A stretch of 64,000 bases of DNA from Leucoraja erinacea (taxonomy: Eukaryota), in the NCBI RefSeq assembly GCF_028641065.1, contig NC_073385.1, positions 21,452,001-21,516,000 of the forward strand. The letters are read 5' to 3'. The position numbers and the translations under genes are program-made. Numbering within the stretch: position 1 is the first letter of the stretch; each line of letters begins with the position of its first letter. Under the pieces are notes generated by a model that had not been told where the DNA came from, ran no database searches, and worked only from the letters and a program-made list of their open reading frames with translations. Shown piece by piece: positions 2,608-60,840 of the stretch.

Positions 2608-2929
2608 ATACAGTATCTCTTAGTCATTTATACAACCCATCACCCTATAATCAATCACCCTTCCCAATACAATCAGTATAACAAATATCCCACTCAAAAT
2701 CACCTATGCTCATCTCAATATCCTTTAAAAAAAAGCCCGCTGAGTCGCTTCAGCACTTTTGAAAATTTCCGTTATATTTTTTATTTTTGTACTTTGTGAA
2801 AGACTATTATCCTAATTTTAATTATTTAAAAATAATCAATGCTTCACAAGTGCAGATTTCTGGAAATATTTTAAGCGATCCACTTTAGGTACATAAATTA
2901 ATTATTTTTTTCTCTGGCTCTTGCTCCAG

Positions 2930-3874
2930 GTTATTTTTCGAAAGATCATTGATGTGAAGAAAGAGGAAGAAGAGAGGATGCGGCTGAAGAACGAGGTGAC
3001 ACTCACTATCCCCGTGGACCATCCTGTCAGGAAGCTCTTCCAGAAGTTCAAGCAGCAAAAGGAATTGCGCAATCAGGCTGCGGAGCGCAGCAGCTCAGAC
3101 AGATGCCACTTCAAAGCAGACAACCACTCGTTTCACAATGGTGTCTCTACCACAGGCACGAGTGTGGTCACTGTGTCTCAGATTACACCAATAGCATCTT
3201 CCCTTTCCTTCGTGAGAAATAATGAGCAAAAGCTGCAGATACAGCGGGAGTCCGTGGAGCTGAAAACAAAAGGTTTGTCAGATGAGATGTGCTCTAGGGT
3301 TACAAGCCCCACACAGGCCAAGGCTGGCAATGGGAGGGGATGGCTAAGACTTAAGAATTCCGTCGCCTTCACAGACCCCTTCCCTGGATCCAGGGAGGAG
3401 AAGGAACAGAACTGGAACAATGTCATCAAAGCTGAATCCATGGAGATTCTGTCAGAGGAATCAAAAGGTACGGATTCTGAGAACAATGTTATAAAGAATC
3501 CTTTGAGGAAAACAGACTCGTGTGACAGTGGCATTACGAAAAGTGACCTGAGGTTAGACAAGGCCGGAGAGATTCGTAGCCCAATTGAGCATAGCCCGGT
3601 TCAAGCTGATGTGAGGCACCCCTTCTACCCGATCCCTGAGCAGGCTTTGCAGACCACGCTGCAAGAAGCAAAGATGGAACTGAAAGAAGACATTCAGTTG
3701 CTATGCAACAGAATGATTGGCCTTGAGAAACAAGTGACGGAAATTCTTCAAATACTGTCTGAAAAGAATCTGCCAGAAATGCCCTCTGAGAAGTCTCAAC
3801 ACACAAGTCAGGAAATATTACCTGTTTCTAAGCCTCCAGCTCCGTCGTTGGAAGAAGGAGATGTTCAGTCTTAG
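2930..3874 (+). CDS. KCNH5: Last coding exon of voltage-gated K+ channel KCNH5 (EAG2/Kv10.2), cytoplasmic C-terminus
   Basis: Polypyrimidine tract + CAG acceptor (tttttttctctggctcttgctccag|G, AG at 2928-2929). Reads [49 protein letters not shown], which is KCNH5-like rather than KCNH1 ([20 protein letters not shown]). Also [19 protein letters not shown] and the coiled coil [25 protein letters not shown]...[13 protein letters not shown]; TAG at 3872-3874. The ORF-track start at 2921 is intronic. Confidence 0.93.
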
Positions 3875-6415: not shown

Positions 6416-6799
6416 GGTCTATCAAGACTATGCCACAGTTTGTAGAGCAAGCCAGTCAATCGCATTGCCTTGCTTTTTCTTCGCAGTATGGAAAACTATT
6501 ACTTTCAATTCAATCTTCTTTTTTAAGCCACATTTGTCTCTGCATCTACCAACATTTCAGGAATATTGCTGGATCATTATTACTGGCCACATTATAAAGG
6601 GTTTTCTGTGCTTCAAGCTTTTGCCAATCTTTTTAGACACGTGCCCTTTGTAACTGATCCCTCATTTGGTCCACCAAGTCCGCGCAGATCAACCGTTCAC
6701 ACTTGTTCTATTCTACACACTAGAGACAATCTACAGAAGGCAATTAACCGACTAACCTGCCCGCCTTTGGAATGAGTGAGGAAACCGGAGGATACCCAC

Positions 6800-7262
6800 G
6801 CAGACAGGTTTATAATGGACGTGAGTCGATAGTCTATCTCCTGTGATGGAGATAGTGAGATCAAGAAAGGGAGGAAGGTGATGGAGATGATCCAAGTGAA
6901 TTTGAGTGCAGAATGGAAGTTGGTGGTGAAGTTAATGAGGTCCATGAGTTCTGCATGGGTGCAGGTGGTAGCACCGATGCATTTGTCAACGTAATGGAGA
7001 TAGAGTTCGGGGATAGGGCCAGTGTACGCCTGGGACAGAGATTGGTCAACATACTCTACAATGAGGCAGGCATTGCTGGGTCCCATGCGAATGCCCATAT
7101 CTACTACTTTGATTTGGAGGAAGTGGGAGGAGTCGAAGGAGATGTTGGTAGAGGGAAATTGGCTGGTTCCGTGACCGAGGAAAAAACAGAGGGCTTTAAG
7201 GCCTTCCTGGAGGGGGATGGAGGTGTAGATTGTCTTAACGTCCATAGTAAAGACTTCTTGCT
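6800..7262 (-). mobile_element. Penelope-like element RT fragment (decayed)
   Basis: ORF 6697..7428(-) FTMDVKTIYTSIP..EGLKAL, MGIRMGPSNACL, LYLHYVDKCIG (YIDD-equivalent), NFHSALKFTW are PLE RT motifs. Confidence 0.85.
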
Positions 7263-7851
7263 TGCAGCAGCACAACAGATATGTAAACATAGTAAAAATA
7301 TGTAATCCCATTAAGGTTCTATCTGCGATTTCTTTGACATTATATCGAACACAAAATTGGAAGTCCATTTTCTGCGTATTCAGAAGCATATTAACTTCCT
7401 GGCAGAAATTGGCATTAGAGAAAAGCAAGAACTAAAGGACAATGTTACAGAAAATTTGCAAGCTTAATTTATTTTCTCTTCAAAATACATATTTTGTTAG
7501 TTAGCATGAAGTCATTGGCAATTTTTAACTACCTTACCATTGACACAGATCAAATTTACACAAGATTGTCTTTGCCTGTAAACTAACCATTAAGAGACAC
7601 CGTCTTTTTGAACCAGATAAGATTCTGAAGGGATATGACAGAATGATGCTGAAATAGAAATAGAGAGTATTTGGGTGACCCTAATCCTGAGACTGGGTTA
7701 ATCATGGATTTTTGGCGGTCTCTACCCAGATAAATATGAATGTTGTGAGATTGTGGATATTTGTGGCCGGGATGCATGGTGGGGGATCAAGGGTGTTGGG
7801 GAAGAGGAAAGAAGATGGAGTTGAGGCCAAAATCACATAAACCTTAATCTT

Positions 7852-8023
7852 GAGTAGGAAGGGCTCGCAGATGCTGATTTAAACTGGTTAGACACAACAT
7901 GCTGGAGTAACTCAGCGGGACAGGCAGCATCTCTGGAGATAAGGAATGGGTGACATTTCGGGTTAAGACATTTCTTCAGTCTGAGATATTGCCTGTCCCG
8001 CTGAGTTGCCCCAGCATTTTGAG
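7852..8023. mobile_element. Fold-back Penelope-terminus element with 14-bp TSD
   Basis: Arms atgctggagtaactcagcgggacaggcagcatctc / gagatattgcctgtcccgctgagttgccccagcat; flanking direct repeat taaaccttaatctt at 7838-7851 and 8024-8037. Confidence 0.85.
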
Positions 8024-9715: not shown

Positions 9716-9909
9716 TGTAAGAGATAAAAAATACTTGAGAGCACAGAGTAACTTGAAGTAATTTTACTTATTTGATGAAGCAAATATTTTTCTGGCTGTC
9801 CCATCAGTGCAGACGCCCAGTAGGTCTGTTAACTAAACAGTAAATGGTGTTACCATCTCGTATTAGATTATGGAAATTACTTTTGAACAGTGAAAAAAAG
9901 AAAAAGATG

Positions 9910-11435
9910 ACTGCTTCCTGTAAGGACTCTATCCCCTACTCCCAATTCCTCCGTCTGCACCGCATCTGCACCCAGGATGAAGTGTTCCAAACCAGGGCAT
10001 CGGAGATGTCTTCATTCTTTAGTAAACAGGGGTTCCCCTCTTCGACTATAGATGAGGCTCTCACCAGGGTCTCTTCTATACCCCGTAGCTCCGCTCTCAC
10101 TCCCCATCCCCCCACTCATAACAAGGACAGAGTCCCCCTTGTCCTCACCTTCCACCCCACCAGCCGTCACATACAACAGATAATCCTCTGACATTTTCGC
10201 CACCTCCAACGGGATCCCATCACTAGCCACATCTTCCCATCTCCTCCCCTTTTGGCTTTCTGCGGAGACCGCTCCCTCCGTAACTCCCTGGTCAATTTGT
10301 CCCTTCTCACCCAAACCACCTCCTCCCCTGGTACTTTCCCTTGCAACCACAGGAAATGCTACACTTGTTGCTTTACCTCCCCCCTCGACTCCATCCAAGA
10401 CCCAAGCAGTCTTTCCAGGTTCACCTGTACCTCCTCCAACCTCATCTATTGTATCCTCTGCTCTAGGTGTCAACTGCTCTACATCGGTGAGACCAAGCAC
10501 AGGCTTCGCCCAACACCTCCGCACAGTCCGCAATAAACAACCTAATCTCCCAGTGGCTCAGCACTTCAACCCCCCCTCCCATTCCGTATCCGACCTTTCT
10601 GTCCTCGGCCTCCTCCATGGCCAGAGTGAGTCCCACCTCAAATTGTAGGAGCAGCACCTCATATTTCGCTTGGGTGCTTTACACCCCAGCAGTATGAACA
10701 TTGACTTCCAATTTCAGGTAGTCCTTGCTTTGTCCCTCCTTCCCCTCCCCTTCCCAGTTCTCCCACAGCCTACGGTCTCCGCCTCTTCCTTTTTTCTTGA
10801 TTCCTGATTGGTTGATTCTTGATTCAGACTGATTCCTGGGATATCAGGAATTTCATATGAAGAAAGACTGGATAGACTCGGTTTGTACTCACTAGAATTT
10901 AGAAGATTGAGGGGGGATCTTATAGAAACTTACAAAATTCTTAAGGGGTTGAACAGGCTAGATGCAGGAAGATTGTTTCCGATGTTGGGGAAGTCCAGAA
11001 CAAGGGGTCACAGTTTAAGGATAAGGGGGAAATCTTTTAGGACCGAGATGAGGAAAACATTTTTCACACAGAGAGTGGTGAATCTGGAACCCAGAAGGTA
11101 GTTGAGGCCAGTTTGTTGGCTATATTTAAGAGGGAGTTAGATGTGGCCCCTGTGGCTAAAGGGATCAGGGGGTATGGCGAGAAGGCAGGTACAGGATACT
11201 GAGTTGGATGATCAGCCATGATCATATTGAATGGCGGTGCAGGCTCGAAGGGCCGAATGGCCTACTCCTGCACCTATTTTCTATGTTACTTCCCGCCCCC
11301 ACACATCCACATCAGTCTGAAGAAGGGTTTCCACCCTATTCCATTGCTCCATAGATGCTGCCTCACCCGTTGAGTTTCTCCAGTATTTTTGTCTACCTTC
11401 GCTTTTTCCAGCATCTGCAGTTCTTTCTTAAACAT
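9910..11435 (+). mobile_element. Penelope-like element 3' part (thumb, GIY-YIG, 3' terminal region), interrupted by a CR1
   Basis: SIPYSQFLRLHRICT; CTSSNLIYCILCSRCQLLYIGETKHRL (GIY-YIG); terminal region cagtctgaagaagggtt...gatgctgcc...cagcatctgcagttc. Confidence 0.9.
10826..11287 (+). mobile_element. CR1 3' fragment nested in Penelope
   Basis: ORF 10883..11101 YSLEFRRLRGDLIETYKIL; 3' UTR ggctcgaagggccgaatggcctactcctgcacc + ctatgtt. Confidence 0.92.
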
Positions 11436-15504: not shown

Positions 15505-15603
15505 AGGTAGACTCAAAATGCTGAAGTAACTCAGTGGGTCAAGCTGCATCTCTGGCGAGAAGGAATGGGTGATGTTTCAGTTCGAGACCCTTTTTCAGCT
15601 TCA
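15505..15603 (-). mobile_element. Solo Penelope terminal fragment
   Basis: tagactcaaaatgctgaagtaactcagtgggtc...gaatgggtgatgtttcagttcgagaccctttttcag. Confidence 0.75.
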
Positions 15604-16809: not shown

Positions 16810-16903
16810 AGGCACAAAGTCCCGGAGTAACTCAGCAGGTCAGGCAGAATCTCTGGAGAACATGTGTAGGTGATGTTTCGGGCCGGGACCCTTCTTCAAA
16901 CTG
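16810..16903 (-). mobile_element. Solo Penelope terminal fragment
   Basis: ggagtaactcagcaggtcaggcag...tgatgtttcgggccgggacccttcttcaaac. Confidence 0.75.
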
Positions 16904-17169
16904 ACAAATCTGGGACAACACTTCTAGCTTGCTCACACTGACACAAGAGATTGACAGCTGTCGCCATTTCCCAAATTCACTGGCTTGTCTGTCAGCACTC
17001 TAATACAATTTCAGCAAAATTTGCCCCATTAAAAATGTGACAAAACAAATATCAGCAGATCCACCTGATTCATAACTGAAAACTTTGAAGATTCTTCTGC
17101 ACAAGGTTTCTGACTAGAAGCATGACCGAATGTACTGATTTGAATAACATTTGGGGACGTGTTGGTTAA

Positions 17170-18710
17170 TATAAACAAACTGCTGGCAGAACTCAACAGG
17201 TCAGGTAGCAATTTGGGAGGGAAATTAACAACATTTTGAGTCCAGATCCTCCATCTGGACAGAAAGAGTAGATGAGAGATAACTTGCTTAAAGAGGTGGG
17301 ACAAGAGCTGGCTGACTATTTGCCAGCTAGATCCAGGTGAGGAAGGCTTGATTGGAACATGGAGGCCGAGGGGAGAGAGAGAGGATGGTGGAGATAGTGA
17401 CTGGGGTGTGATAAACAGAGACACCAAGGCTCTGCAGATTATGGAACCAGAACGAAAGGAAGAGCAAAGCAGGTAAGAGAGGGATGGCGGCAGATATGAA
17501 CAGTAGGGAGGAGTGGGGTAGGGAATTTGGGGCCATGTGGCACGGGAGATAGCAGATCGAGTTGGTGGGGAGGAAGAAATTAGCTGCAGGGAGGGGTGGC
17601 GAGTTTGGAAGAAGGGGATGTGTGTGAGGTAATCAAAAGAGGGGGGGGTTACAGAGTGGGTTGGGTTACTTGAAATTGAGGTATTCAAAGTTCATGGCTT
17701 GGTTTTAGACTGCAAAGGCAGAATATGAAGTTGTTTTGTTTAGTTTAGTTAATTGTCACGCGTACCGAGATAAATTGCCAAGCATTTGCTGCGTGCCAAC
17801 CAGTCAACGGAAATATTGTACATGATTCCAATTGAGCCATCCACAATGTACAGATACATGATAAAGGGAGTGACGTTTAGTTAAGCTAAAGTACGAAGTC
17901 CTAGTTTGCGTTTGGCTTCATTGTGGCAGTGGAGAAGCCAGAGGACAGACAGGTTGGTTTGGGAATGGGAAGAGGAATTAAAAATGGCTTTCAAATGGGA
18001 ATGCTAGAAGGTCATTGCTGACAGGCTGCATGTGCTCAGCAAAGAGGCCACCTGATCTGTGCGTGGGTCTCACTGAGGTGGAGGGGGCCACAGTCGAAAG
18101 CACGCAATGCAATTGATGAAGTAGAGGATTTGCACGTGAATCTCCATCTCACCTGGAAGGGCTGTTGAGATTCCTGGGTAGAGTTGAGGGTGGACGTGTG
18201 GGGATAGGCATTACACCTCCTACGCTTGCAAGAGGAAGTGGCTGGGGAAGAGGAGGAATGGGTTCAGAAGGAGGCTTGAACCTGGATGTAACAGAAAAGA
18301 GTGGTTCCTGCAGACAAGGGTGCGGAGGGGAAGGTGTGACTAATAGAGAGTTCAGGTTGTAGTTGATGGCAATGTTGAAGAATGGGTGCACAGGCTGGTG
18401 TGGTGAAAGGTAAAGGGCCTGTCCCAATTTCATGACCTAATTCATGACCTCTGCCGAGTTTGCCCTTGACATACTCGCAGCAGGGTCGTCACAAGGTCGT
18501 AGGAGGTCGTAGAAGGTCATAGGAGGTCGTAAGAGATCGTAGGTAGGTCGTAGGTAGGTCGTGATGCTAGTCGTAGGTACTCGTGGCAGCAAGTAGATCG
18601 GGGCGTTTTTCTAGCCTAATGAAAAATGTCGACGAGTAAAAAAGGTCATGAATTAGGTCGTGAAAGTGGGACAGGCCCTTAAGGATCAACCCTTGTTCTG
18701 AATGTGAATC
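17170..18710 (-). mobile_element. Decayed Penelope-like 3' region (GIY-YIG + purine-rich UTR), with nested insertions
   Basis: Reverse similarity to 10250-10750 (ttacttgaaattgaggtattcaaagttcat; gggaatgggaagaggaattaaa; gtggagggggccaca). Confidence 0.7.
18414..18679. mobile_element. PIF/Harbinger-type MITE
   Basis: TIRs agggcctgtcccaatttcatgacctaattcatgacct / aggtcatgaattaggtcgtgaaagtgggacaggccct; TAA at 18411-18413 and 18680-18682; internal (aggtcgtag)n array. Confidence 0.9.
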
Positions 18711-22329: not shown

Positions 22330-23720
22330 GTCTGTGTCATACAGCGTGGAAACAGGTTATCGGGCCCAACTTCTTAATGCCAACTAAGCTGCCTACTTGA
22401 ACTAGTCTCTTATGCATGAGCTTGGTTGATTTCCCTCTGAACGGTTCCTATCCATGTACCTGGCCAAAAGCCTTTTAGATGTTGTGATTGTATCCACCTC
22501 AACCACTGCCCCCAGCAACTCCACATACCAACAATCCTTTGTGTGAGAAAGTTGCCCCTCGGATCTCCTTTAAATCTTTCCGCTTTCATTTAATTCTCTG
22601 CCCTCTAGTTTTAGACTCCCCTACCCTAGGAAAAAAAAGGACTACAACCATTCACTTTACCTTTGTTCCTCATGGTTTTATAAACCTCTATAGGTTTTCG
22701 CTCAGGTTCCTGAGCTCTAGAGAAGAAGTTCCCAGCCTCTCCATTCTCTCTTTATGATTCACTCCCTCAGTCCGGTATCATTCTTGTAAATCTTATCTGC
22801 ACCTTTTCCAAATTAATGGCACCCTTCTTGTAGCTTGCTGATTAGAACTGCACACAATACACTACATATGGTCTCAGGAATTTCTTGTAACATGACATCC
22901 CAACTCTTGCACTCACTGCCCTGACCAATGAAGGCTAGTGTGCCAAAGGCCCCCTCCACCATCCTGACTACCTGTGTCGTCACGTTCAGGGAATTTTGTA
23001 ATTGTATTCTTAAGCCTGTTTGTTTGACAACACTCTCCAAAGCCCTGCCATTTACTGTATAAGTCCTTCCCTGGTTTGACATGAAAATGCAACACTTTGT
23101 AGTCCTCCAAGTTAAATTTAATCTGCCAGTCCTTCACCCACTTTGCCCAGTTGATTTAGATCCCGTTGCAATGTTGGATAATCTCTTTTACTGTTGACTA
23201 TACCACTAATTTTGGTGTAATCTGCAAAGTTTACTAAACATGCCAACTACTCTGGCATCCAAATCATTCATATAAATGAAGAGGAAATTGGACCCAGCAC
23301 CGATCGATGTGGCACACCGCTGGTCACAGGCCTTGAATCTAAAAAAACAACCTTCCACAACCACCCTCTGAAGAAGGGTTTCGGCCCGAAACGTTGCCTA
23401 TTTCCTTCGCTCCATAGATGCTGCTGCACCCGCTGAGTTTCTCCAGCTTTTCTGTGTCACCCTCTGACTCCTATTGACAAACCAACTTTGTATCTAAATG
23501 GCTAATTCACTCTAGATCCCAAATCTATCTCTGAAAATCCCTCCCCAGTAACTTTTCCACCATTGAAATTAGGCTCGCCAGCCTGTAGTTCTCTGGCTTA
23601 TCCTTGCAGCTCCTCGTGAATAAAAGCACAACATTAGCCAGTCATCCAGTACAAATATTTGTGCCAGAGCTCCAGCCATTTTTTCTCTGCCTTCCCACAA
23701 TGTCCTGGGATGCTATTGGT
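22330..23720 (-). mobile_element. Older CR1 subfamily (RT to 3' end), decayed
   Basis: ORFs 22913..23137(-) WQIKFNLEDYKVLHF and 22813..23082(-) GRTYTVNGRAL...AFGTLAFIGQG. Confidence 0.85.
23368..23457 (+). mobile_element. ~90-bp Penelope-terminal insertion carrying a hammerhead-like core
   Basis: ctgaaga-a-gggt-ttcg-gccc-gaaacgtt...; direct repeat caccctctga at 23362-23371 and 23458-23467 within the host CR1. Confidence 0.8.
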
Positions 23721-29036: not shown

Positions 29037-29311
29037 AAGATAGATACAAAGTGCTGGAGTAACTCAGTGGGACAGGCAGAATTTCTGGAGAGAAGGAATG
29101 TGTGACGTTTCAAGCTGAGACCCTTCTTCAGGCTGGGTCTGAAGAATCTGAGTCTGATTTTTTTGGAGAATATTGAGTCTAAGGATTCATCTCCACCTGA
29201 AATGTCACCCAATTCTTTTCTCCAGAGATGCTGTCTGTTCCGCTGAGTTACTCCAGCACTTTGTGTTTATCTTCAGTTTAGACCCGCATTTGCAATTCCT
29301 CCTACACGAAG
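29037..29311. mobile_element. Fold-back Penelope-terminus element
   Basis: Inverted arms aagatagatacaaagtgctggagtaactcag / ctgagttactccagcactttgtgtttatctt; flanks aagtagacca (29027-29036) and aagtaggcca (29312-29321). Confidence 0.82.
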
Positions 29312-35405: not shown

Positions 35406-35615
35406 AAGACACAAAATGCTGGAGTAACTCAGCAGGTCAGGCAGCATCTCTGGGTAAAATGAATAGGTGACTCTTTGAGTCAAAACCTTTCCTCAGACTC
35501 TTTCGACCCGAAACCTCACATTCAATTTCTCCAGTGATGCCGTCTGCCCGCTGAGTTACTCCAGCATTTTGTGACTATCTTCAGTGTAAATCAGCATCTG
35601 CAGTTCCTTACTACA
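35406..35615. mobile_element. Fold-back Penelope-terminus element
   Basis: Arms cacaaaatgctggagtaactcagc / gctgagttactccagcattttgtg; flanks ttagagattgaagt (35392-35405) and ttggaaattgaagt (35616-35629). Confidence 0.85.
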
Positions 35616-37265: not shown

Positions 37266-37524
37266 TGTGAAGGAATGAACTGCAGATGCTGGTTTAAATC
37301 TAAGATAGATACAAAATGCTGCAGGTACTCAGCAGGACACGCAGCATCTCTGGGGAGAAGGAATTGGGTGATGTTTCGGGTTGAGACCCTTCTTCAGACT
37401 AGTTAGGGATAAGGACTAGTTAGACCCAGTCTGAAGAAGGGTCTCGACCCAAATGTCACCCATTCCTTCTCTCCAGAGATGCTGCCTATCCTGCCAAGTT
37501 ACACCAGGATCTTGTGTCTATCTT
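37266..37524. mobile_element. Fold-back Penelope-terminus element with hammerhead-like cores on both strands
   Basis: Arms ...gggtgatgtttcgggttgagacccttcttcagact / agtctgaagaagggtctcgacccaaatgtcaccc...; flanks caagttaataggtt (37252-37265) and caagtgaatagatt (37525-37538). Confidence 0.88.
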
Positions 37525-38199
37525 CAAGTGAATAGATTATTAGAGTTGGAAGCATGCCTCCCACTCTAAACCTCTTGAGCCAACAGTCCACAATGAAGGT
37601 TGCACATGAGGAAAATGCTTCAGATTTTAAGTTGACCACAGGTCTTCTGATTAGCTGGTGACACATTGACATTCATATTAAAGACAAGTTGCAACTATCA
37701 TTCTTTCACAATGATTTCAATATGTTTTATCGTGACTGGAAGGATTCTAATTCCATTTCGATCCTTAACATTGACCGGACAACAAGGAAGAAATTGGCGT
37801 TCCTATTATTTGCATGATATACTGCATCAATGCTTATATGTGGGAATGTGGGAGAGAGAATCAAGAACATTTGAGGTCTTGGCTTATTATTGTCACGTAA
37901 ACCGAATTTGGAAAAAAGTCTCTTGTGTGATCCAGTCAAATCGTGCTGTAAACAATTAAAACAGGAAGTGCAAAGAGAAAAATACCAGAGTGCAGTGTAT
38001 AGTTTTACAATGTTATAGCACCACAGTTTACAGAGAGATTGCAGATGGAAATAAGTGCAATGACCACAATGGGTTAGGTTGTGAGATCAGGAATACACCC
38101 TTAGCTTATGTGAGGGCCGTTCATTCATTTGATAACAGTGGAGCAGCTGTTCCTGTTTCTGGTGGTACACATTTTCAAGCTTTTGAATCAGGAACAGAG

Positions 38200-39095
38200 C
38201 CCCCTCGTCCTCACCTGTCACTCCATCAGCTGTTGCAAACAGCACATCAACTCCAACATTTTCAGCACCTCCAACGGGATCACCCCACTAGCCACATCTT
38301 CCCATCTTCACCCCTTGCCGCTTTCCGCAGAGATTGTTTCCACCACAACACCCTGGTTAACTCATCCCTTCCCACCCAAACCACTCCCTGCCCAGGTACT
38401 TTTCCCTGCAACCGTAGGAGATGTAACACCTGTCCCTATACCTCTTCCCTCGACTCCATCCGAGGACCCCAACAGTCCTTTCAGGTGAGGCAGAGGTTAA
38501 CTTGCACTTCCTCCAACTTCACCTACTGTGTTCGCTGTTCCAGGTGTGGACTCCTATATATCGGCGAGACAAAGCACAGGCTCAGCGGTCGTTTATGGAA
38601 TACCTAAACCTACAAGATCTCCCGGTTGCTAAACACTTTAACTCCTCCTCCCATTCCTGTACTCACCTTTCTGTCCAGGGCCTCCTTCACTGACAGAGTG
38701 AGGCCCAACACAAATTGGAGGCACAGTACCTCATATTTCGCTTGGGCAGCTTACAACCTAGCGGTTTGAATATCGACTTTGCTAACTTCAAGTAACTCTT
38801 GCTCTCTCTCTCGCTCCCTCCCCATCCTAGTTCCATGACCAGTCCGACTGTCCTCCTGATTTTAGCATACAAAAATTTGATCTTTGTATGCTAATTACTG
38901 TCACCTTTACTACATTTCCTAATCTGCATACCCTTTGATGTCTCGTTTTCACTCCTAAATCTTCAATTTCTCTGAGTCTCCCTCTCTCCTGACTCTCAGT
39001 CCGAGGAAGGACCTTGACCCGAAACGTCACCCGTTCCTTCTATCCCGAGATGGTGCTCGTTCCGCTGAGTTACTCCAGCATTTTGTGTCTATCTT
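38200..39095 (+). mobile_element. Penelope-like element 3' part (GIY-YIG + terminal region)
   Basis: CNRRRCNTC...TCTSSNFTYCVRCSRCGLLYIGETKHRL; terminal cccgaaacgtcacccgttcc...ctgagttactccagcattttgtgtctatctt. Confidence 0.9.
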
Positions 39096-41810: not shown

Positions 41811-42204
41811 TACCTTGGCTTTCTCCACTGTATCTCCTTATTATCTATGGTCTGTTCCATTCTAATCCCTTCCAAGTGCTATGCAGGATTTCTGGCAAAT
41901 GACCCAGCAGCTGCTTTTCTTCTAGCCTGGGTATAAAACTGAATGGACTGAAAGGAAGAAAGAAACAAAAAGAAATGTCCTTTAAAAGGAAATAATCTCT
42001 GAACTAAATTCACATTTGCAATGCTCCCTGTCTACTGTTATTTTCATTCTATGTAAAAAATGTTGGTAACAATTATTTTCTCAGATAATGACCAGACCTC
42101 ACTCTTGCAGTGAGTTTAATGGAGAATTAATGAGCAAATGCTGTTGGAGATGGCAAAGGTGTTGGAGGATTATATGCTGTTGAAGGAGTTGGAGGATTAT
42201 ATGC

Positions 42205-43305
42205 CACCTCCAATGGGATCCCACTACTTGCCACATCTTCCCATCTCCCCCACTTTCTGCTTTCTGCAGAGACCTTCCCTCCGCAACTCCCTGGTCAACT
42301 CATCTCTTCCCACCCTAACCACCCCCTCCCCAGGTACTTTCCCCTGCAACCACAGGAGATGTAACACCTGTCCCTTTACCTCCCCCCTCGACTCCATCCA
42401 AGGACCCCAAGTCTTTTCAGGTGAGGCAGAGGTTCACTTGCACCTCCTCTAACCTTATCTACTGTATCCGCTGTTCCAGGTGTCAACTTCTGTACATCGG
42501 TGAGACCAAGCGCAGGCTCGGCGATCATTTCCCTGAACACCTCTGCTCAGTCTGCCTAAATCTACCTGATCTCCTGGTTGCTTAGCACTTTAAGCTTGTG
42601 GACAAGCTTTTCCCTTTGAGAATAGGGAAGATTCAAACAAGAGGACATGACTTCAGAATTAAGGGACAGAAGTTTAGGGGTAATATGAGGGGGAACTTCT
42701 TTACTCAGAGAGTGGTAGCGGTGTGGAATGAGCTTCCAGTGGAAGTGGTGGAGGCAGGTTCATTGGTATCATTTAAAAATAAATTGGATAGGCATATGGA
42801 TGAGAAGGGAATAGAGGGTTATGGTATGAGTGCAGGCAGGTGGGACTAAGGGGAAAAAAAATTTGTTCGGCACGGACTTGTAGGGCCGAGATGGCCTGTT
42901 TCCGTGCTGTAATTGTTATATGGTTATATGGTTATATGGTTATATGGTTAACTCCCCCTCCTATTCCAAATCTGACCTTTCTGTCCTTCGGGCCTTCTCC
43001 ATTGTCAGAGTGAGGCCCAGCGCAGATTGGAGGAACAGCACCTCATATTTTGCTTGGGTAGCTTACACCCCAGCAGTATGAACATTGACTTCTCTAACGT
43101 CAAATAGCCCTTGCTTTCCCTCTCTCTCTATCCCCTCCCCTTTCCCATTTCTCCCACCAGTCTTACTGTCTCCGACCATTCCATATCTGTCCTGCCCACT
43201 TCCCAGACATCAGTCTGAAGCAGGGTCTCGACCGGAAACATCACCCATTCCTTATCTCCAGAGATGCTACCTGTCCCGCTGAGTTACTCCAGCATTTTGT
43301 ATCAA
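42205..43305 (+). mobile_element. Penelope-like element 3' part interrupted by a CR1 (42594-42949)
   Basis: GIY-YIG region ctgtacatcggtgagaccaagcgcagg (LYIGETKRR); terminal cagtctgaagcagggtctcgaccggaaacatcaccc. Confidence 0.9.
42594..42949 (+). mobile_element. CR1 3' fragment with (ATATGGTT)n tail
   Basis: ORF 42598..42849 KLFPLRIGKIQTRGHDFRIKG...FFTQRVVAVWNELP; ttaa duplicated at both junctions. Confidence 0.92.
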
Positions 43306-50337: not shown

Positions 50338-50454
50338 TCATTAGCACTATCTTGCTAAAACACTGAAGGGTCTTTTTGTTTTGAGCCAGCTGGTTTGCAT
50401 AGCACTGACATTGCCCACAAATAAAGGTTGAATGATACCATACAATTATACTAT

Positions 50455-51297
50455 GGCAAAAACAGGAAAGCAGACTATTATCTCAATGGTGGCCGACTAG
50501 GAAAAGGGGAGATGCAGCGAGACCTGGGTGTCATGGTACACCAGTCATTGAAAGTAGGCATGCAGGTGCAGCAGGCAGTGAAGAAAGCGAATGGTATAGA
50601 AACATAGTAGGCATGCAGGTGCAGCAGGCAGTGAAGAAAGCAAATGGTATGTTAGCTTTCATAGCAAAAGGATTTGAGTATAGGAGCAGGGAGGTTCTAC
50701 TGCAGTTGTACAGGGTCTTGGTGAGACCACATCTGGAGTATTGCGTACAGTTTTGGTCTCCAAATCTGAGGAGGGACATTATTGCCATAGAGGGAGTGCA
50801 GAGAAGGTTCACCAGACTGATTCCTGGGATGTCAGGACTGTCATATGAAGAAAGACTGGATAGACTTGGTTTATACTCTCTAGAATTTAGGAGATTGAGA
50901 GGGGATCTTATAGAAACTTACAAAATTCTTAAGGGGTTGGACAGGCTAGATGCAGGAAGATTGCTCCCGATGTTGGGGAAGTCCAGGACAAGGGGTCACA
51001 GCTTAAGGATAAGGGGGAAATCCTTTAAAACCGAGATGAGAAGAACTTTTTCACACAGAGAGTGGTGAATCTCTGGAACTCTCTGCCACAGAGGGTAGTT
51101 GAGGCCTGTTCATTGGCTATATTTAAGAGGGAGTTAGATGTGGCCCTTGTGGCTAAGGGGGTCAGGGGGTTTGGAGAGAAGGCAGGTACGGGATACTGAG
51201 TTGGATGATCAGCCATGATCATATTGAATGGCGATGCAGGCTCGAAGGGCCGAATGGCCTACTCCTGCACCTAATTTCTATGTTTCTATGTTTCTAT
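50455..51297 (+). mobile_element. Young CR1 3' fragment with internal duplication
   Basis: ORF 50613..51068 QVQQAVKKANGMLAFIAKGFEYRSRE...; (CTATGTTT)n tail. Confidence 0.94.
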
Positions 51298-52032: not shown

Positions 52033-52268
52033 GAAAAATCGAAGTGTTGGAGGAACTCAGTGGGTCAGGCAGCATCTGGGGAGGGAATGGATAGATGATG
52101 TTTCGAGTCGGGATTCTTCTTCAGAATTACACTATCAGTCTGAAGAAGGGACCCAACCTGAAAGGTCATCTGCCTGCTCCCTCTCCAGTTGCTGCCCGAC
52201 ACGCTGAGTTCCTCCAGCACTTTGTATTTTGCTCATGATTGTGGCATCTGCAGCTTCTCATGTCTCTG
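52033..52268. mobile_element. Fold-back Penelope-terminus element with 12-bp TSD
   Basis: Arms aagtgttggaggaactcag..gggtcaggcagcatctgg / ccagttgctgcccgacacgctgagttcctccagcactt; perfect gttaaatgctaa at 52021-52032 and 52269-52280. Confidence 0.87.
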
Positions 52269-53262
52269 GTTAAATGCTAACATGTTTTTTAATTTTATTC
52301 TTGCATATGTTATTTGCAAGGATAATTCATATATAATATATATATATATATGTTTGTGCACAAGAGAAAGGCAATGGGATGGGTTGAGAGAGAAAAAGAG
52401 AGAGAGATAAAAAGGGTGAGAGTATAGAAAGATAGATATTGAAAATCATCATTCATTTAAAATGTAATATTTAGCTTTAATAGGTCACTTTTGTTTCTTT
52501 TGTAGTGCTGACAGCCTTTTTAATGACACCAGTCATTTGTAACAGTGCCATTAAAATAATTAGAATAACGTGATTAGCATCCTCAATGCTCATTATGTCT
52601 CAAAACTGGGATGACAAAACATGATTTAATCCACAAAACCCCTTTGCTGAGAGAGTGTATTAATTGAGAATATCAGCTGTGGACCTATCCTTTCATCCGC
52701 AACAATTTGTTCCAAACAATGTGAATAAAAGCATTTCCTTTCTACTAATTAGATCTCAAAAGGGCAAAACTTTGTACATTATCGTAAGATTTACTTGGGT
52801 GCCAACCGGGAAAGCAATATAAACTGACAAATAATTTCATAATTAGTGAAATTTAAAAGCACATTTGAGCCCGTGTCATGCAAGAGCAATTACTTACGCA
52901 GAGTTTGAAGGAACACAACCAAAACTGCAGGAAGACCCATTATTAATTAATCTAAAGTGCAAGAAATAATTAGAAAACACTGCAAGCCATAAGCATGGAG
53001 GTTGTGTTAAATTGTCGTTTGTATGAGCATGGATACAGAGAATAAACGCTTCGATGAATTCGCCTTTAAAGAGGGTGCAAGATGGGAGGTGACAAGGAGA
53101 AGTTTTGGAGTTTTATGAGGTAAACAGAGACTCAGATTAAGGTTTGTGTTTACATTGGATGTGATGAGGCCAGGGCAGATGTGGACAGATTTAATGAATG
53201 TGGAATTAAGGCATCCTAAGTAAGGATGGCTGGAGTCTCCAGATCAAAGTGGGGAGGACTAA

Positions 53263-53498
53263 TGCCCCTGTCCCACTTAGGAAACCTGAACGGAAACCTC
53301 TGGAGACTTTGCGCCCCACCCAAGGTTTCTGTGCGGTTCCTGGAGGTTGCAGGTGGTTGCCAGAGGTTGCAGATAGTGGAAGCAGTGAGTGAGACTGACA
53401 AAAACCTCCTGGAAACTCCGGGAAACGCACGGAAACCTTGGGTGGGGCGCAAAGGCTCCAGAGGTTTCCGTTCAGGTTTCCCAAGTGGGACAGGGGCA
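53263..53498. mobile_element. PIF/Harbinger-type MITE with long TIRs
   Basis: ~75-bp near-perfect inverted arms tgcccctgtcccacttaggaaacctgaacggaaacctctggag...; TAA at 53260-53262 and 53499-53501. Confidence 0.93.
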
Positions 53499-55799
53499 TA
53501 AGTATGGAGAGTCAGTAGGGCAGAAAGGAATGGAACCAGATGAAGCCAGGTGGACTAGGCCATAGACAAGAACTACTGGGCCAAGATATCATGGGCGAAA
53601 TGTTGTGGCCAAACAAGGTAGTAAGCTGCAGCCCACCCTGAGAAGAAATTGATTTCAAATTTTGAAGAGAACCATTTCTGTGCCGTGGTAGAGCAGAAAT
53701 CTAATGAAAGGTATTTAAACCTGAGTAAAATAACTATGAAAGTGTGGAAGCAACTTAATAACTAAAGTAAAACAGGATGTTGAAGATGGGTTGGCTATTT
53801 GCATAGATGGAGGGATCAAGATGTGATTTTCGAAGAGATATAGTAGTGAACCTGAGCTGGTCCTAGGAGACTGGGGCTGAAAGAGAAAAATATTAACCCT
53901 GGTGAACACTAATTAGGGAAGTTGGCTGGTCAAGAGTTTGGTGGGAATTAGGGAGTTGGAGTAATGGGTAGAGAGACAAATACGAGCATTGCATTGACAG
54001 CAATAGTAGATGATAGAACCTGCATCATTTCATCTATCTGCTACAACAGTAGTTGCACTGCTTTACCCCACTTTCATAACAGCAGTTTTGGATGCTCCAA
54101 TGTTGAATGCATGTTAACTGTGGTAATATGAGTACTCAATGTTGAGACTATAGATTTGATTCATCTTCTCTAAACCAGTGCTACTTTTATTCAGTCTCAC
54201 CTGGCCTCAACGCTACCATGACATTTCCTTTGTTCTTTCCACCACCTCTTTCCCACCCTCTTATTTCATTTCTGACCTTATCACATTTCTAATGAAAGGT
54301 CTTTGACCTGAAACACTAACTTCCTCTCATCCTCCACAACTGCCTACTGATTAATTCCAGCAATATCTGGCTTTATTTTGTAGTTCCCTATGATTCCTTG
54401 TCCACTACCTTCTGCTTTTGGATGAAGCCTCTTGCTGAATATATTTCCTTTGTTTGATTCACAAATATGGAATTATCTGATTTTTCATAAATAGTTGTTT
54501 TTAGAATTCAAATCTTTGAAAATTCTCATGCAGTGTAAACATTTCCATAAAATAATATTAAGAAAAAAGCTGTCATGTTACTTGCTTTATGCCCAATTCA
54601 ATTATGCAAAAAGCTCAAAGCTATGAATGTGAAATTAGTTGGCAAGTTCAAAAAGGTTGCAATAAAAATTCAGTTTATAATTGCTTTTCTAACCTTGCAC
54701 TCAATGCTCATGGACTAATTGTGTAAGTGTGGTTGGAACATTTGTAGAGGATGGTATAAGAGATTGTAACCAGATCTTGTCGGGGCAGGAAATCCCACAG
54801 TGAGCTCAGTTGGTTGAACATTTTTCCTGCAGTCTTGTACTGGGACACACACTGAATGTGACAGCTAGTAAACGGCCTAGAGAGGACTAGGGGGCAGCTG
54901 AAACCTCAAGTGAAAGGCCAACAGAAATAGGTTTTCAGCAAGAAATGGAATGACTATGAACTAGGATGACATGAACGAGAATGATCCCTTGGATAGAGTG
55001 GATGTGGAGATGATGTTTCCGCTAGTGGGAATGTCTAGGACTGGAGGTCATAGCCTCAGAATTAAATGATGTTCTCCTAGGAAGAATTCCCAGGTCACAG
55101 TGCCGGGAAGTTATTGGTTGGGTTACCCATTGATAATGGTATATGTTATTGACACTTTAAGTGTCTTGCTGGCCCTAACGTCTTCTTGGCCCAATCTCCT
55201 CAGCCCCAACTTGAATTGGCCCATCGTTTCCACAGCAACCATATTAACTGGTCCAAACTATGCTTCTTACCCGAAGATTCATCAAATTTGCCGTCTCTGC
55301 AACAGCAGCAGGACCGCTGATGTTTAATAAGTAAACCCATGCCCAAACACTGTGACAACTGCCAAAGTCTTGTCTACAACATTACAAAATATAATACCTT
55401 TCAGTGATTTTTATTATTTCTAAGTATTAGTAAGAGGTGTCCCATTGATGTTTTTCCAGCATTGGCTGGCGTTTTCATATCATTGTTTTTTGGCACTGTA
55501 GTTTTCCTTTATCACAGCCGGTGTTTCTGCTGTCATTTCTTCTCTGCGAGCGATAATTGTCTCATCTGAGGCCCTTAGCGATTGGGAGAGTTGAACACGC
55601 TAGGGCTCTATTCCATGGAATTCAGGAGGCTGAGGGGTGATCTTATGGATGGGTATATGATCATGAGGTGTAGATATCACATACACATATTTGCAGTCAT
55701 ACAATTTTCAATATAAAATATATGTAAATGGTAGAAAGGTCTTGGACAGTCAGGAAGTGAGTCAGCAGGATACGCTCTCTCTGACCTGATTTAGAGACT

Positions 55800-56287: not shown

Positions 56288-56418
56288 ATGTGTAGGAAGG
56301 AACTGCAGATGCTGGTTTAAACCAGAGATAGACACTAAAAGCTGGAGTAACTCAATGGGACAGGCAGCATCTCTGGAGAAAGGAATGGGTGACGTTTCGG
56401 GTCAAGACCCTTCTTCAG
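56288..56418 (-). mobile_element. Penelope terminal fragment with intact hammerhead-like core
   Basis: Reverse of 56391-56418 = ctgaaga-a-gggt-cttg-accc-gaaacgtc. Confidence 0.82.
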
Positions 56419-56639
56419 AGAGAGAGAAAGACATGGATGAAGACAAGCAGAATCAGGTAGAAAGTAGTAAAGAACATCAGCCCGAGACCGTCATTGAGAC
56501 AAAACTTGGACGCAAGCAGAATGGCAGACAGGAGTGAGAGCAGAGAAGGAGATTATAAGATTTCCCACCATAAGTGTAGGTAACCTCACTTTATACTTTG
56601 CCTGCTTACTAAAATAATTCACAATACTGCAACTTCAAT

Positions 56640-58330
56640 TCCAAAGAACTGGAGGAACTCATTGGGTCAGGCAGCATCTGGGGAGCGAATAGACAGGTGA
56701 CATTTGGGCCAGGACCCTTCTTCAGACTGATAGCTGTAGGTGGAATAAAGTTGGAAAAGAGAGGTGGGGGTGGGTAAAGCTGAGCAAGGGATAGGTAGAT
56801 ACAGATGAGGGAGTGAAGGCCTCAGCGTAGACGGAGGCACAAAAGGGTGTCAAATAAGGAGAGAAGAGAAGTAGTGAAATGGAAAAGCTGCTGGGAAGAA
56901 TATGGGGGGGGGGGGGGGAGGGGTCAATCGGGCAAGTAAAGGGAGACTTGGGGATAGGTGATGAGTGCATGAAGGAGGGGGAAGTAGGTGGTAACTGGGA
57001 GGTGTTGGAAGATGATGGGAGAGGGGTGTGAGTAGAAGGGGAATGGAAAGTGGGGGAGAAAGGATGAAAGGGAAATAGGGGATGGGGATTGGAGATGAGC
57101 GTACAACAGAGGGGATATGGGGTTGGGATATGGTGGGAGAAATGGAAGTGACTGGGGTGATGACGGGGGTGGGGAACACAAGAAGGAAAGTGGGGGTAGG
57201 AGGATATTACTTGAAGTTGGAAATTCAATGTGTTGCAAACAACCCAGGCAGAGGATAGGCGGCATGGTGGCCTTGCGGTAGAGCTACTGCCTTACAGCGC
57301 CAGAGACCCGGGTTGGATCTTGACTATGGCTGCAGTCATAGAAACATAGAAAATAGGTGCAGGAGTAGGCCATTCAGCCCTTTGAGCCTGCACCGCCATT
57401 CAATATGATCATGGCTGATCATCCAACTCAGTATCTTGTACCTGCCTTCTCTCCATACCCCCTGATCCCTTCAGCCACAAGGGCCACATCTAACTCCCTC
57501 TTAAATATAGCCAATGAACTGGCCTCAACTATCTTCTGTGGCAGAGAATTCCACAGATTCACCACTGTGTGAAAAATGTTTTTCTCATCTCGGTCCTAAA
57601 AGACTTCCCCCTTATCCTTAAACTGTGACCCCTTGTTTTGGACTTCTCCAACATTGGGAACAATCTTCCAGCATCTAGCCTGTACAGAGTCTGTACAGAG
57701 TTTTACATTCTGCCCGTGAATTGCGTGGGTTTTCTCCGAGATCTTCGGTTTCCTTCCACACTAAAAAGATGTACAAGTTTGTGGGTTAATTGCCTCGGTA
57801 TAAATGTAAAAATGTCCTTAGTGTGTGTGTGTCGGATAGTGTTAATGTGTGGCAATTGCTGTTCAGTGGAGACTGGGTGGGCCAAAGGGCCTGTTTCCGC
57901 ACTGTATATCTATAACTAAATACTAAAACTAAATGAGGCATGTTCCTCCAGTTGGCATGTGACCATACTCTGGCAAGGGCAGAAAGCTTGGTATGGGAAT
58001 GGGAAGGGGAGTTAAAATGGTTCGCAAGCATGAGATCCAACTGGCCTTGGCGGACAGAGCGTGTACCTGGTAAAATGCTAGCCGAGTTTACTCTTGGTCT
58101 GCCCATGTAAAGGAGGCCACATTGGGAACACCAAATGCAGTAGATGAGGTTGAAAGTGCTGCACATGACCCTCTATCTTACCTGGAAGGGCTGCTGGGGT
58201 CCTTGGAAGTGACGAGCGGAGGTGTAGGGACAGGTGCTACAGTTCCTGTGGTTACAGGGGAAAGTTCCTCGGGAGTTGAAAGATTGGGTGGGAAGGAAAG
58301 AGCGAATTAAGGAATTGCAGAAAAGATGGT
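56640..58330 (-). mobile_element. Penelope-like 3' part with nested SINE and CR1
   Basis: ORF 57786..58166(-) CSTFNLIYCIWCSQCGLLYMG (GIY-YIG); terminal motif at 56645-56730. Confidence 0.82.
57257..57932 (+). mobile_element. HE1/V-SINE-like SINE containing an antisense CR1 3' end (57338-57685)
   Basis: Head ggcggcatggtggccttgcggtagag..., body resumes at gtctgtacagag; the insert matches 39655-40025. Confidence 0.85.
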
Positions 58331-58467
58331 CTCATAAGATCATAAGGAATAGGAGTAAAATTCGGCTATTCAACCCATCAAGTCTACTTCGCCATTCAAT
58401 CATGGCTGATCTATCTCTACCTCCTAACCCCATTCTCCTGCCTTCTCCCCACAACCTCTGACACCTG

Positions 58468-58563
58468 GGTAGACAAAAATGCTGGAGAAACTCAGCAGGG
58501 GTGCGGCAGCATCTATGGAGCGAAGGAAATAGGCAACGTTTCGGGCCAGAACCCTTCTTCAGA
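58468..58563 (-). mobile_element. Short Penelope terminal insertion, same subfamily as 23368-23457
   Basis: Reverse reads ctgaagaagggttctggcccgaaacgttgcctatttccttcgctccatagatgctgc. Confidence 0.82.
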
Positions 58564-59499
58564 CACATCACAGAACGATGTCATGTTGGAGTTAGATATT
58601 GGATATGATACTGATCTGCTGGACCTGGGCCCAATTCTGCCATCCAACAATTCCAAGATGCTGTGATTGTCAAGAAGGAAATGCAAGAAGGAATTGGTCC
58701 ATGAGGAATGATGCCCCTGCATGAAGTTTGATCATGGAAACATTTAATTGAAAGCTGAGCAAGGTAGCATAAGTTAGTGGCATAATTGGCAGTGTGATTG
58801 GCAGAGAGTGCTTGCAAGCAACACAAACATAGAGACTCTACACTCCATTTTGTAACAGAAGTCTGAAAACTCATCAGATTATTAAAAAAATACCCAAAGT
58901 CCCACTTTTCCTGAGGTCTTTCGTCTCATACAAATATGCTAAAATGGGCATTAGATAAATGCCTTATATTGAAATTGGTTACATCTGGAAATTTCCTCTG
59001 ATATCTACATAGCAGTGACTGACATTCTTAATAGAAACAGAAGGCTGTTAATAACCAAATTTCTGACAGAAACAACTGCAGTGAAAACTATTTTCCCTCT
59101 TTATTAATGCATGGCTAATGCCCCTGGGTTTCCTTAGAATGATTCAACAATCTATTAATAAGCTTTGTGCATTGGGTCCACGACTGCATAAGCTGTCGGG
59201 ATCTTGGCAATATTGGCAAGTCCAGAAGGCATTAAGAATTTAGAGCCGGACTCAAGTCATGTGTAGGCTAAAGCCAGCTTGTTCCCTTCCCCACAGGGAG
59301 TCTGTCAGATTACGAAAAGCTGGCAGCTCTTGTGGTGAATTGTTCCACCGCCAACCCACAAGTTCGCTGATTTTATTGAATTCACTTGCCTCGGTGGGAT
59401 TTGAATTCATGACCTCCTGGCTATTTCCGTGGTGTCATCAGTGCCACACTCCGTTATTTTTAATTAATTTAACTGAAGACACATTCTGCCTTTGTATCA

Positions 59500-60277: not shown

Positions 60278-60760
60278 AGGGGGGAGAGAAGGGGGTGAAG
60301 GGGAGAGAAGGAGTGGAGACAACTTTTAAGAAGCCTGAGATATACGGCTGTGAAGCTCGGCGGACATTAACATTACCAGTCGGTTATCCTTGGTACTGAG
60401 AACTACTGCTCACGTTTTTTTCCCCCAATGAGCCAATGAAATTCAGCGGTCAGCCCGGCTACAACCTATGGCAACCTTCGACCTCCTGGCGACCCACTAG
60501 AACATCCTGGCGGCCCCACCTACGGCACAAGAATTCTCGCTACTCTCCATGGCGGCTTCATTCTGATCGCCGCTAATTTTTCAACATGTTGAAAATTCAC
60601 GGCGACCATAATGAGGCTGCGACTAGTTCCCAGAATGTGGGAACTCCTCACGACCGTGAAGGCGACTCCCCGGCAACCACCCGCGGACATGTGGCGACCA
60701 TGTGGCGACCGCATAGTCTCCTGCAATCGCATAAAAAGTTGCCTAAGTGGGACAGGCCCA
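60278..60760. mobile_element. Truncated Harbinger-type non-autonomous element (right end)
   Basis: Ends aagtgggacaggccca|TTA, sharing the TIR core with the 18414, 33700 and 53263 elements; many ggcgacc repeats. Confidence 0.75.
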
Positions 60761-60840
60761 TTACTGTCTCCGACTACATTTTATCTCTGTACCACCCACT
60801 CCCCTGACATCAGTCTGAAGAAGGGTCTCAACCCAAAACT
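60761..60840 (+). mobile_element. Penelope terminal region fragment
   Basis: ttactgtctccgac...gacatcagtctgaagaagggtctcaacccaaaac, homologous to 43163-43240. Confidence 0.78.

Follow-up and report, generated by a model that had tools for sequence, protein, structure and literature searches.

The window, i.e. the whole stretch of 64,000 nucleotides of skate DNA that was analysed, contains many copies of a short repeat, and the motif at the 5' end of this repeat is very probably a minimal type I hammerhead ribozyme in the pLTR of a Neptune-type Penelope-like element (PLE), as judged by its sequence features. The explanation that fits the data best combines this identity with a ribozyme that would act as a dimer and with a separate route by which short copies would arise; taken as a whole, we consider it likely. 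The pairing of hammerheads with PLEs is already known. Beyond this, the pattern of copy ends is a testable lead on PLE replication, and a family from cartilaginous fish is added to the known ribozyme-PLE association.

The copy singled out by the initial annotation (the focal copy) reads, on the minus strand of 56391-56418, CUGAAGA, an extra A, a 4-bp stem II with a 4-nt loop, and then GAAACGUC; the letters agree exactly with those given before. The core CUGANGA ... GAAA ... UH is intact here, and across copies most core positions are conserved in at least 15 of 18. Recurrence of the motif in the window is well above background. The 28-nt core with up to 8 mismatches was found at 16 sites (0 in each of 20 shuffles), a structure descriptor returned 8 rows representing 6 distinct sites (mean of 0.27 in 30 shuffles), and a profile built from the core and its 3' neighbour gave 29 matches at E<=0.05, 25 of them at E<1e-5. 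Considering the extent of the profile and its matches, the motif is the 5' part of a repeat unit of 95-130 bp, which occurs about once per 2.5 kb of the window (Table 1).

Nine further positions had been listed as variants. A copy is indeed present near each of them, about 1-17 nt away, so that the claimed recurrence is real, but the copies had been undercounted, and among the nine the full core is kept only at 23368(+) and 58562(-). Overall, it is intact in 4 of the 19 window copies tested. The notion of a high-copy Penelope family is supported by the abundance of PLE terminal units in the window. The focal copy is not the one attached to the 58316-57963(-) endonuclease remnant. It is a solo fragment in its own right, from a different subfamily, and lies about 280 nt beyond the attached copy. 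A target-site duplication was looked for around this fragment and none was found; at the 58562(-) copy the duplication is at background level only. The 5' junctions of two solo copies (23362-23371 and 58559-58566) have a few bases in common with the target, a microhomology around C3.

Table 1. Features of the PLE family in the window (positions are counted from the first nucleotide of the window; C3 marks the hammerhead position at which the core begins)
Feature	Position	Strand	Details
Predicted minimal hammerhead core, focal copy	56391..56418	-	CUGAAGA followed by an extra A; stem II of 4 bp, loop of 4 nt; GAA; ACGU palindrome
Predicted cleavage of the focal core	3' of C at 56391	-	
Solo pLTR fragment around the focal core	56290..56419	-	starts at about -1 of C3, runs via the short end (~56326) into the optional tail
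Optional tail of the focal fragment	56290..56325	-	~36 nt, second 3' end; also the loose end of 5372 RNA reads
Solo unit, GUU subfamily	23367..23457	+	intact core, short end; 10-bp exact duplication overlapping the first bases of the element
Solo unit, GUU subfamily	58467..58564	-	intact core, short end
Solo unit	15505..15598	-	decayed core; 14-bp duplication with 1 mismatch
Unattached unit, sister subfamily (16872 in the initial annotation)	16810..16904	-	unconnected to endonuclease remnant 18383-17902
Copy with ~50 nt of upstream UTR	60765..60839	+	truncated within the core on the 3' side
Head-to-head palindrome	7852..8023		minus arm (C3 7979) tailed, plus arm short with internal deletion; 14-bp exact duplication
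Head-to-head palindrome	29037..29311		minus arm short, core intact (C3 29131); plus arm tailed, interrupted (C3 29139)
Head-to-head palindrome	35406..35615		minus arm (C3 35496) short, plus arm tailed; 14-bp duplication, 2 mismatches
Head-to-head palindrome	37266..37524		minus arm (C3 37397) tailed, plus arm (C3 37431) short; 14-bp duplication, 2 mismatches
Head-to-head palindrome, sister subfamily	52035..52268		minus arm (C3 52124) short, plus arm (C3 52140) with diverged tail; 12-bp exact duplication
Decayed PLE 3' part	56640..58316	-	endonuclease remnant 58316-57963, two repeats inserted, pyrimidine-rich UTR
Hammerhead copy attached to remnant 58316-57963	56698-56725	-	G12 missing
Decayed PLE 3' part	9892..11435	+	RT thumb, linker, endonuclease 9913-10714, LINE insertion 10825-11290
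Hammerhead copy of remnant 9892..11435	11317	+	core partly deleted, tail present
Decayed PLE 3' part	38251..39095	+	C-x4-C-x2-C linker, endonuclease remnant to 38792, short end
Hammerhead copy of remnant 38251..39095	39001-39028	+	U4 replaced by C
Decayed PLE 3' part	42171..43303	+	endonuclease remnant to 43104 with insertion, short end
Hammerhead copy of remnant 42171..43303	43215-43242	+	A9 and palindrome altered
Older PLE remnant	17171..18383	-	endonuclease 18383-17902, degraded terminal unit 17255-17171
PLE reverse-transcriptase remnant	6700..7317	-	RVT_1 match of E 2.4e-4, under the Pfam cut-off; PLE proteins matched by tblastn, E down to 1e-35

In total, seven endonuclease remnants and one reverse transcriptase (RT) remnant of a PLE were found in the window. 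Because all of these protein frames are frameshifted or contain stops, we do not treat them as ORFs. According to the initial annotation, the motif lies downstream of four GIY-YIG ORFs, on their sense strand. This arrangement holds in all four cases (11317+, 39001+, 43215+ and 56725-), but the presumed ORFs are decayed remnants, each with frameshifts or stops and three of them with other repeats inserted. A fifth, older case of a sense-strand motif behind an endonuclease is found at 17255(-).

The order of the domains, RT followed by GIY-YIG, is seen in tblastn matches of RT-endonuclease (RT-EN) relatives, which cover 9913-10714 and six other remnants. The Pfam RVT_1 and GIY-YIG matches are weak and fall under the Pfam cut-offs; the nearest database proteins, with 54-65% identity, are RT-EN products of PLEs from two rays and a shark, pointing to a host among the cartilaginous fish. 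The endonuclease is of the same kind as in these relatives, i.e. C-terminal and of the GIY-YIG type, with cysteines inside the core as in the Neptune clade. The frame at 37960-38607 and the relatives also have a C-x4-C-x2-C linker before the GIY-YIG domain, and a CX2-5CxxC linker marks the Neptune or Nematis clades (PMC8557442). The host element may be filed as Neptune-type by its linker and domain features rather than by a tree, the linker being shared with Nematis. Neither a full-length element framed by two pLTRs nor a young master was found in the 64-kb window. The unit at 7979(-) was considered as the 5' pLTR of the RT remnant at 6700-7317 and rejected, as the palindrome to which it belongs is framed by a target duplication of its own and the interval up to the RT remnant contains no protein match.

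The earlier view of the motif as a minimal type I hammerhead is borne out by the core, the extra nucleotide 9/10.1, the G10.1-C11.1 pair, the palindromic stem III and covariation across families. A search with Rfam hammerhead covariance models gave no hammerhead among 6 matches, up to E=5, and the stand-alone fold stability of two single cores provided no signal (z values of +0.5 and +1.0). Both results would suit a repeat that resembles the hammerhead consensus by chance. We find such an origin hardly credible, since it is refuted by the conservation of the motif across families, its position and its covariation.

Within the window family, stem II varies mostly by CpG decay and one-sided change, not by compensation. 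The window copies decay neutrally: the CpG of the palindrome is kept in 6 of 20 copies, compared with 10/18, 11/23 and 8/21 at three other CpG sites. The source state of the palindrome is ACGU, the 20 copies including 6 with CG, 5 with CA and 5 with TG. Because of this neutral decay, covariation was sought between families. The comparison drew on metagenome loci with genes for related RT-endonuclease proteins, of which 507 were confirmed and the best 80 used. When these 80 were searched with a descriptor limited to CUGANGA, stem II and GAAA, in which neither the extra nucleotide nor stem III was required, 25 rows were returned compared with 0.85 in shuffles. The extra A after A9, noted by the initial annotation and present in the focal core, recurs in 22 of the 25 rows, and CGU-H comes next in 16 of the 25. 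Among the 37 of the 80 loci that retain the endonuclease end and at least 400 nt behind it, a relaxed core follows the endonuclease on the sense strand in 24 and on the antisense strand in one; in the 24 sense-strand loci it is mostly located 95-180 nt from the endonuclease end. In L010 and L013, two full-length relatives, the hammerhead and the start of the ORF overlap. Viral contigs gave no match to the exact family pattern. A looser core pattern was met in seven viral loci (L081-L087), which have no PLE protein and mostly no proper stem II; these matches are probably chance occurrences in coding DNA and were excluded from the counts.

Pairing was assessed in an alignment (A3) of 12 rows with native upstream sequence, four from the window and eight from relatives, representing about five families. 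Stem I counts were taken from A3, since another alignment (A2) includes solo copies, whose upstream sequence is host flank, and a doubtful row, L050. In A3, 80% of the cells are paired, compared with 64% after shuffling and 19-43% with slid partners. The first two pairs of stem I are held in 12/12 and 11/12 rows, with 3 and 7 two-sided changes, respectively. In stem II 89.6% of the cells are paired and two of the four pairs show two-sided change; the G10.1-C11.1 pair is held in 11 of the 12 rows. As the rows are related, the pairing changes are not independent events. Still, four differing stem I sequences around an unchanged core would be hard to explain otherwise. Covariation is seen in stems I and II across families, but there is little compensation inside the window family. 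The ACGU of the relatives is invariant except for CpG-type decay, and this invariance gives no covariation support for stem III pairing.

How such a ribozyme might work can be outlined for a master element. There would be a hammerhead behind the endonuclease, at a distance of about 110-210 nt, and one at the ORF start, in the upstream copy of the pLTR. Since a single copy cannot fold stem III, two copies would be needed: by the example of published relatives, the two copies of a tandem transcript would pair via ACGU/ACGU, swap their stem I strands and cut after GUC or GUU. Cleavage would probably be aided by the element's own protein. The minimal features of such ribozymes, their dimers and their low activity have been described for PLEs (PMC4209133), and the ribozyme of the anole element is protein-assisted and dispensable for insertion (PMC11167929). 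By analogy, the ribozyme probably acts as a dimer and with the aid of protein, and only so in master copies. The focal copy and most others would be inactive 95-130-bp pLTR fragments, derived from RNA left uncut by the ribozyme. We lean slightly towards the prediction that master copies of the family are catalytically active.

Several observations speak against activity in this family. An earlier caveat that stem I has only about 2 bp proved correct, even for element-attached copies: there are 2 bp in the window family, 1 bp for the focal copy in its flank and 3-4 bp in relatives. With 30 nt of downstream sequence included, the active dimer fold is 26-42 kcal/mol above the best alternative compared with 8-27 for four relatives, these being nearest-neighbour energies that ignore tertiary contacts and proteins. 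The dimer is unfavourable because the core pairs with a downstream pyrimidine run; in the predicted monomer, the core is folded into a downstream hairpin. No close same-strand pair of intact cores able to dimerise occurs in the 64-kb window, and the arms of head-to-head copies would form long hairpins, not dimers. The RNA data come from a related species, about 6% of a single poly(A) run, and were mapped to the 42171..43303 remnant, which also served as the reference for contigs. Among the 16,063 reads mapped there was no cleavage-type pile-up of RNA starts or ends, a weak test, as read-through in both orientations dominates. Depth on the terminal unit is equal on both strands in the same reads. 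The missing pile-up agrees with what has been reported for the anole ribozyme, a negative result and a dependence on protein (PMC11167929).

These observations raise the question of whether the hammerhead is a catalytically dead relic here, its sequence being kept by an overlapping transcription start, ORF start or RT protein-binding signal. The 2-bp stem I together with the strong competing fold, the lack of a cleavage pile-up and the lack of any copy that starts at the cleavage site all suit a relic, as does the finding that ribozyme mutants leave in vitro insertion of the anole element unaffected (PMC11167929). However, the exact core and the palindrome are common to families that share only about 45% protein identity, stems I and II change in a compensated manner from family to family, the window family included, and the D. 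virilis ribozyme has a 2-bp helix I as well (PMC4209133). On balance we regard a dead relic as rather unlikely.

The 5' ends of the short copies are sharply placed. In thirteen unattached copies, similarity to the sequence upstream of attached copies extends just 0-6 nt before C3; these copies were chosen by a visible C3, which biases the set to starts at or before C3, and divergent or cut-off matches were excluded. Two further copies start inside the core. None of the 29 profile matches in the window starts within 3 positions of the cleavage site. Since copies begin just upstream of C3 and none at the cleavage site, the template RNAs were uncleaved. RNA depth rises about 12-fold from 43197-43209 to 43210-43222 (103/112 to 1294/1375), which is partly confounded by upstream divergence. 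A gradual rise in depth from 43210 to 43262 was dropped as evidence, being confounded by clipped sister subfamilies.

Why copies stop just before C3 might be explained by run-off of the RT to the 5' end of the RNA, and this would also explain the short stem I. Bases -5 to +2 at the window copies fit the initiator consensus, with A at -3. In L010 and L013 an element of this type is found 32-33 nt downstream of a TATA box, and the start predicted for them is 45-48 nt before C3. The commonest related family has a TATA box at -37, which predicts a start at about -7, and its three short arms begin at -3 to -9. Among relatives, arms with starts at -3 to -9 are limited to L066(-) and the L068 palindrome (duplicated in L070), in loci that were selected by ORF. 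A general start of inverted arms near C3 was considered for the relatives and proved wrong, as most arms extend far upstream.

Stalling or fold-back of the RT accounts for the boundary about as well as run-off. According to this alternative, copies start at C3 because the RT stalls or folds back at the ribozyme fold or at a 9-nt near-palindrome that has the base before C3 as its centre. This near-palindrome is exactly the turning point of the 7979/7981 junction, no canonical TATA box was seen by eye upstream of the attached copies of the window, and junction palindromes in rotifer elements have been read as self-priming (PMC3846280). Against it speak the solo copies, which share the same start without fold-back, and the initiator-like heptamer with its counterparts behind the TATA boxes of L010 and L013. 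We consider it a strong contender with a probability somewhat below even.

The boundary could also be a 3' splice site, formed by the pyrimidine tract and CAG before the core, in which case splicing would lengthen stem I and set the 5' end. A pyrimidine-rich run and CAG-U directly precede C3 in all five copies with upstream UTR. However, just 6-8 nt separate the AG from the branch-point-like CUGAC, none of the 15 joints listed is a skip joint with its end at 43213-43214, and the AG is retained in several short copies. A precedent is provided by D. virilis, in which an intron ends at helix I (PMC4209133). Overall, a splice acceptor fits the copy boundary less well than run-off or stalling, and we think it improbable.

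At their other end, copies of the terminal unit have two 3' ends about 36 nt apart, the short end and the tail end. The tail is clear in 8 of the 29 profile matches (score of at least 13), a ninth match being borderline (score 11), and in RNA of the related species the unit continues mainly into this tail (5372 reads). This ~36-nt tail is the known PLE tail, which has been tied to two internal RT start sites, with both target strands cut and extended (PMC11167929). One-sided tails on inverted pLTRs have also been described (PMC3846280, PMC8557442).

The window contains five head-to-head palindromes. Target duplications are present at all five, with scores of 14, 8, 10, 10 and 12 in a background where scores of at least 10 occur in 3 and of at least 8 in 15 of 300 windows. 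The weakest is that of 29037..29311 (10 bp with 1 mismatch). As each palindrome has its own target duplication, each represents a single insertion. Exactly one arm is tailed in five out of five, counting the 52140 arm, whose tail score of 11 corresponds to the 99th percentile of the background. The chance of this outcome is 0.13 given five tailed arms and about 0.02-0.03 with independent arms. Of the seven inverted insertions in relatives that could be assessed by eye, five are one-tailed, two are untailed and none is two-tailed; in this tally L070 duplicates L068, and L002 could not be judged. The palindrome at L068:1-250 (the same as in L070), from a distant related family, has two arms, one of them tailed, and a structure as in the window.

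The short copies may then be pictured as follows. Reverse transcription would begin at either of two internal sites, located 3' of the cleavage site at distances of about 65 nt (short end) and 100 nt (tail end), and would stop just 5' of C3. Both cut target strands would be extended, one per site, and the two cDNAs would be joined head to head, giving a palindrome with one tailed arm inside a 10-14-bp target duplication. For the route as such, uncleaved RNA and two internal priming sites, we put the chances at about even. A more specific version is tentative and on the unlikely side. In it, transcription begins 3 nt before C3, where an initiator overlaps stem I, so that stem I of the 5' ribozyme never exceeds 2-3 bp; internal priming there yields run-off cDNAs of 95-130 nt that resemble strong-stop products and are inserted in very large numbers; and a dimeric RT-endonuclease extends both target strands from the two start sites, producing palindromes with exactly one tailed arm. 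If this version is true, the genome is a mass fossil record of Penelope first-strand intermediates, in which the RNA start, both priming sites and the absent cleavage are mapped at base resolution.

The units could instead be an independent non-autonomous family, retrozyme- or SINE-like, that replicates via self-cleaved, circularised monomers. In contigs and RNA reads, the depth of the terminal unit is indeed about 8-10 times that of the endonuclease end (depth not being copy number), whole-unit head-to-tail joints of 89 nt, leading from 43300 to 43212, were seen in three related runs, with 3, 5 and 1 contigs, and animal retrozymes have been proposed to derive from pLTRs (10.64898/2026.07.22.740005). 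However, the 29 window matches include no head-to-tail array of the unit, the whole-unit joint is covered by 0 RNA reads, copy ends do not coincide with the cleavage site and read depth is the same on both strands. An independent family of this kind is quite improbable, and by the tandem criterion the window units are not a retrozyme. The rare 89-nt joints could nevertheless be retrozyme-like dimers.

A few features of the related runs are recorded here in their own right. A 66-nt tandem repeat of the 3' part of the unit (43235-43300), which starts from G12 and is without CUGANGA, is covered by 108 RNA reads in both orientations and by a few DNA contigs. RNA reads on 43028-43170 (endonuclease end and UTR) show a bias of about 2-3.5 to 1 to first-mate-plus, which in most stranded libraries is antisense to the ORF; the bias could reflect a few host loci. 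The frequency of G in the palindrome is 6.7% in contigs compared with 59% and 68% in RNA reads, the differences between contig runs being incompletely counted.

Cervera and De la Pena (2014, PMC4209133) have already described ribozymes of this type from metazoan PLEs, among them the Neptune, Poseidon and Xena elements of fish. The window motif shares with them the type I order, CUGANGA/GAAA/UH, the extra nucleotide 9/10.1, the G10.1-C11.1 pair and the palindromic 15.2-16.2, as well as the occurrence mostly as dispersed single copies with some close opposite-strand pairs. It differs in stem I, 2 bp compared with the 4-5 bp reported there; its stem II has 4 bp. Two supplementary files of that report have no entry for shark, skate, Callorhinchus or Leucoraja. 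As in Poseidon PAc of Anolis carolinensis (Frangieh et al. 2024, PMC11167929), the hammerhead is placed at the pLTR-ORF junction, there are two 3' ends with a 30-40-nt tail about 65-100 nt behind the cleavage site, and insertion proceeds from uncleaved RNA with no reads ending at the cleavage site. However, PAc belongs to another clade, Penelope/Poseidon elements being without the cysteine linker, and short solo or palindromic units starting at C3 are not among the products described in the parts of that report considered here.

The features typical of endonuclease-bearing (EN+) PLEs, inverted pLTRs, an optional 30-40-nt tail and a target-site duplication, are all present in the window. Neptune EN+ PLEs (Craig et al. 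2021, PMC8557442) likewise combine an RT, a C-terminal GIY-YIG endonuclease with internal cysteines and a CX2-5CxxC linker with inverted pLTRs, a tail at one end and a hammerhead in the pLTR. Head-to-head pLTRs with one of them tailed, junction palindromes and solo pLTRs are also known from Penelope of Adineta vaga (Arkhipova et al. 2013), where target duplications are 8-10 bp and solo pLTRs are ascribed to recombination or deletion (PMC3846280). Unlike in A. vaga, an insertion in the window often consists of just two arms of about 100 nt, and such insertions are dense (5 in 64 kb). Animal non-LTR retrozymes resemble the window units in being pLTR-derived and non-coding with a type I hammerhead, and are reported from the one chondrichthyan sampled; their defining head-to-tail tandem units are absent from the window (10.64898/2026.07.22.740005). 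A literature search, with most subscription papers and Repbase/Dfam outside its scope, found nothing published on this elasmobranch family or on C3-proximal starts. The role of PLE hammerheads and the origin of one-side-tailed inverted pLTRs are open questions (PMC8557442, PMC3846280, PMC11167929), on which the family bears. With its abundance, sharp ends and target duplications, it makes such PLE questions testable by counting copy ends.

The window is located in and behind a KCNH5-like gene. The frame at 2897-3874(+) resembles the last exon of the KCNH5 (Eag2) potassium channel, matching residues 672-982 of PDB 7yid_A with E 7.6e-119. Other repeats accompany the PLE family. A palindromic MITE-like element at 53258-53503, which we take to resemble PIF/Harbinger elements, has terminal inverted repeats and TAA on both sides, and a relative of it (end near 60745-60765) interrupts the PLE UTR upstream of the 60815 copy. 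A young LINE family, presumably CR1/L2-like, is represented by 47639-49022, 50436-51297, 10825-11290, 57338-57686 and others, and is inserted in several PLE remnants; its RVT_1 match has E 5e-27 and its 3' ends are 90-97% identical. Finally, a head-to-head or inverted pair of a different repeat lies at 1526-1755, with arms that are 73% identical.
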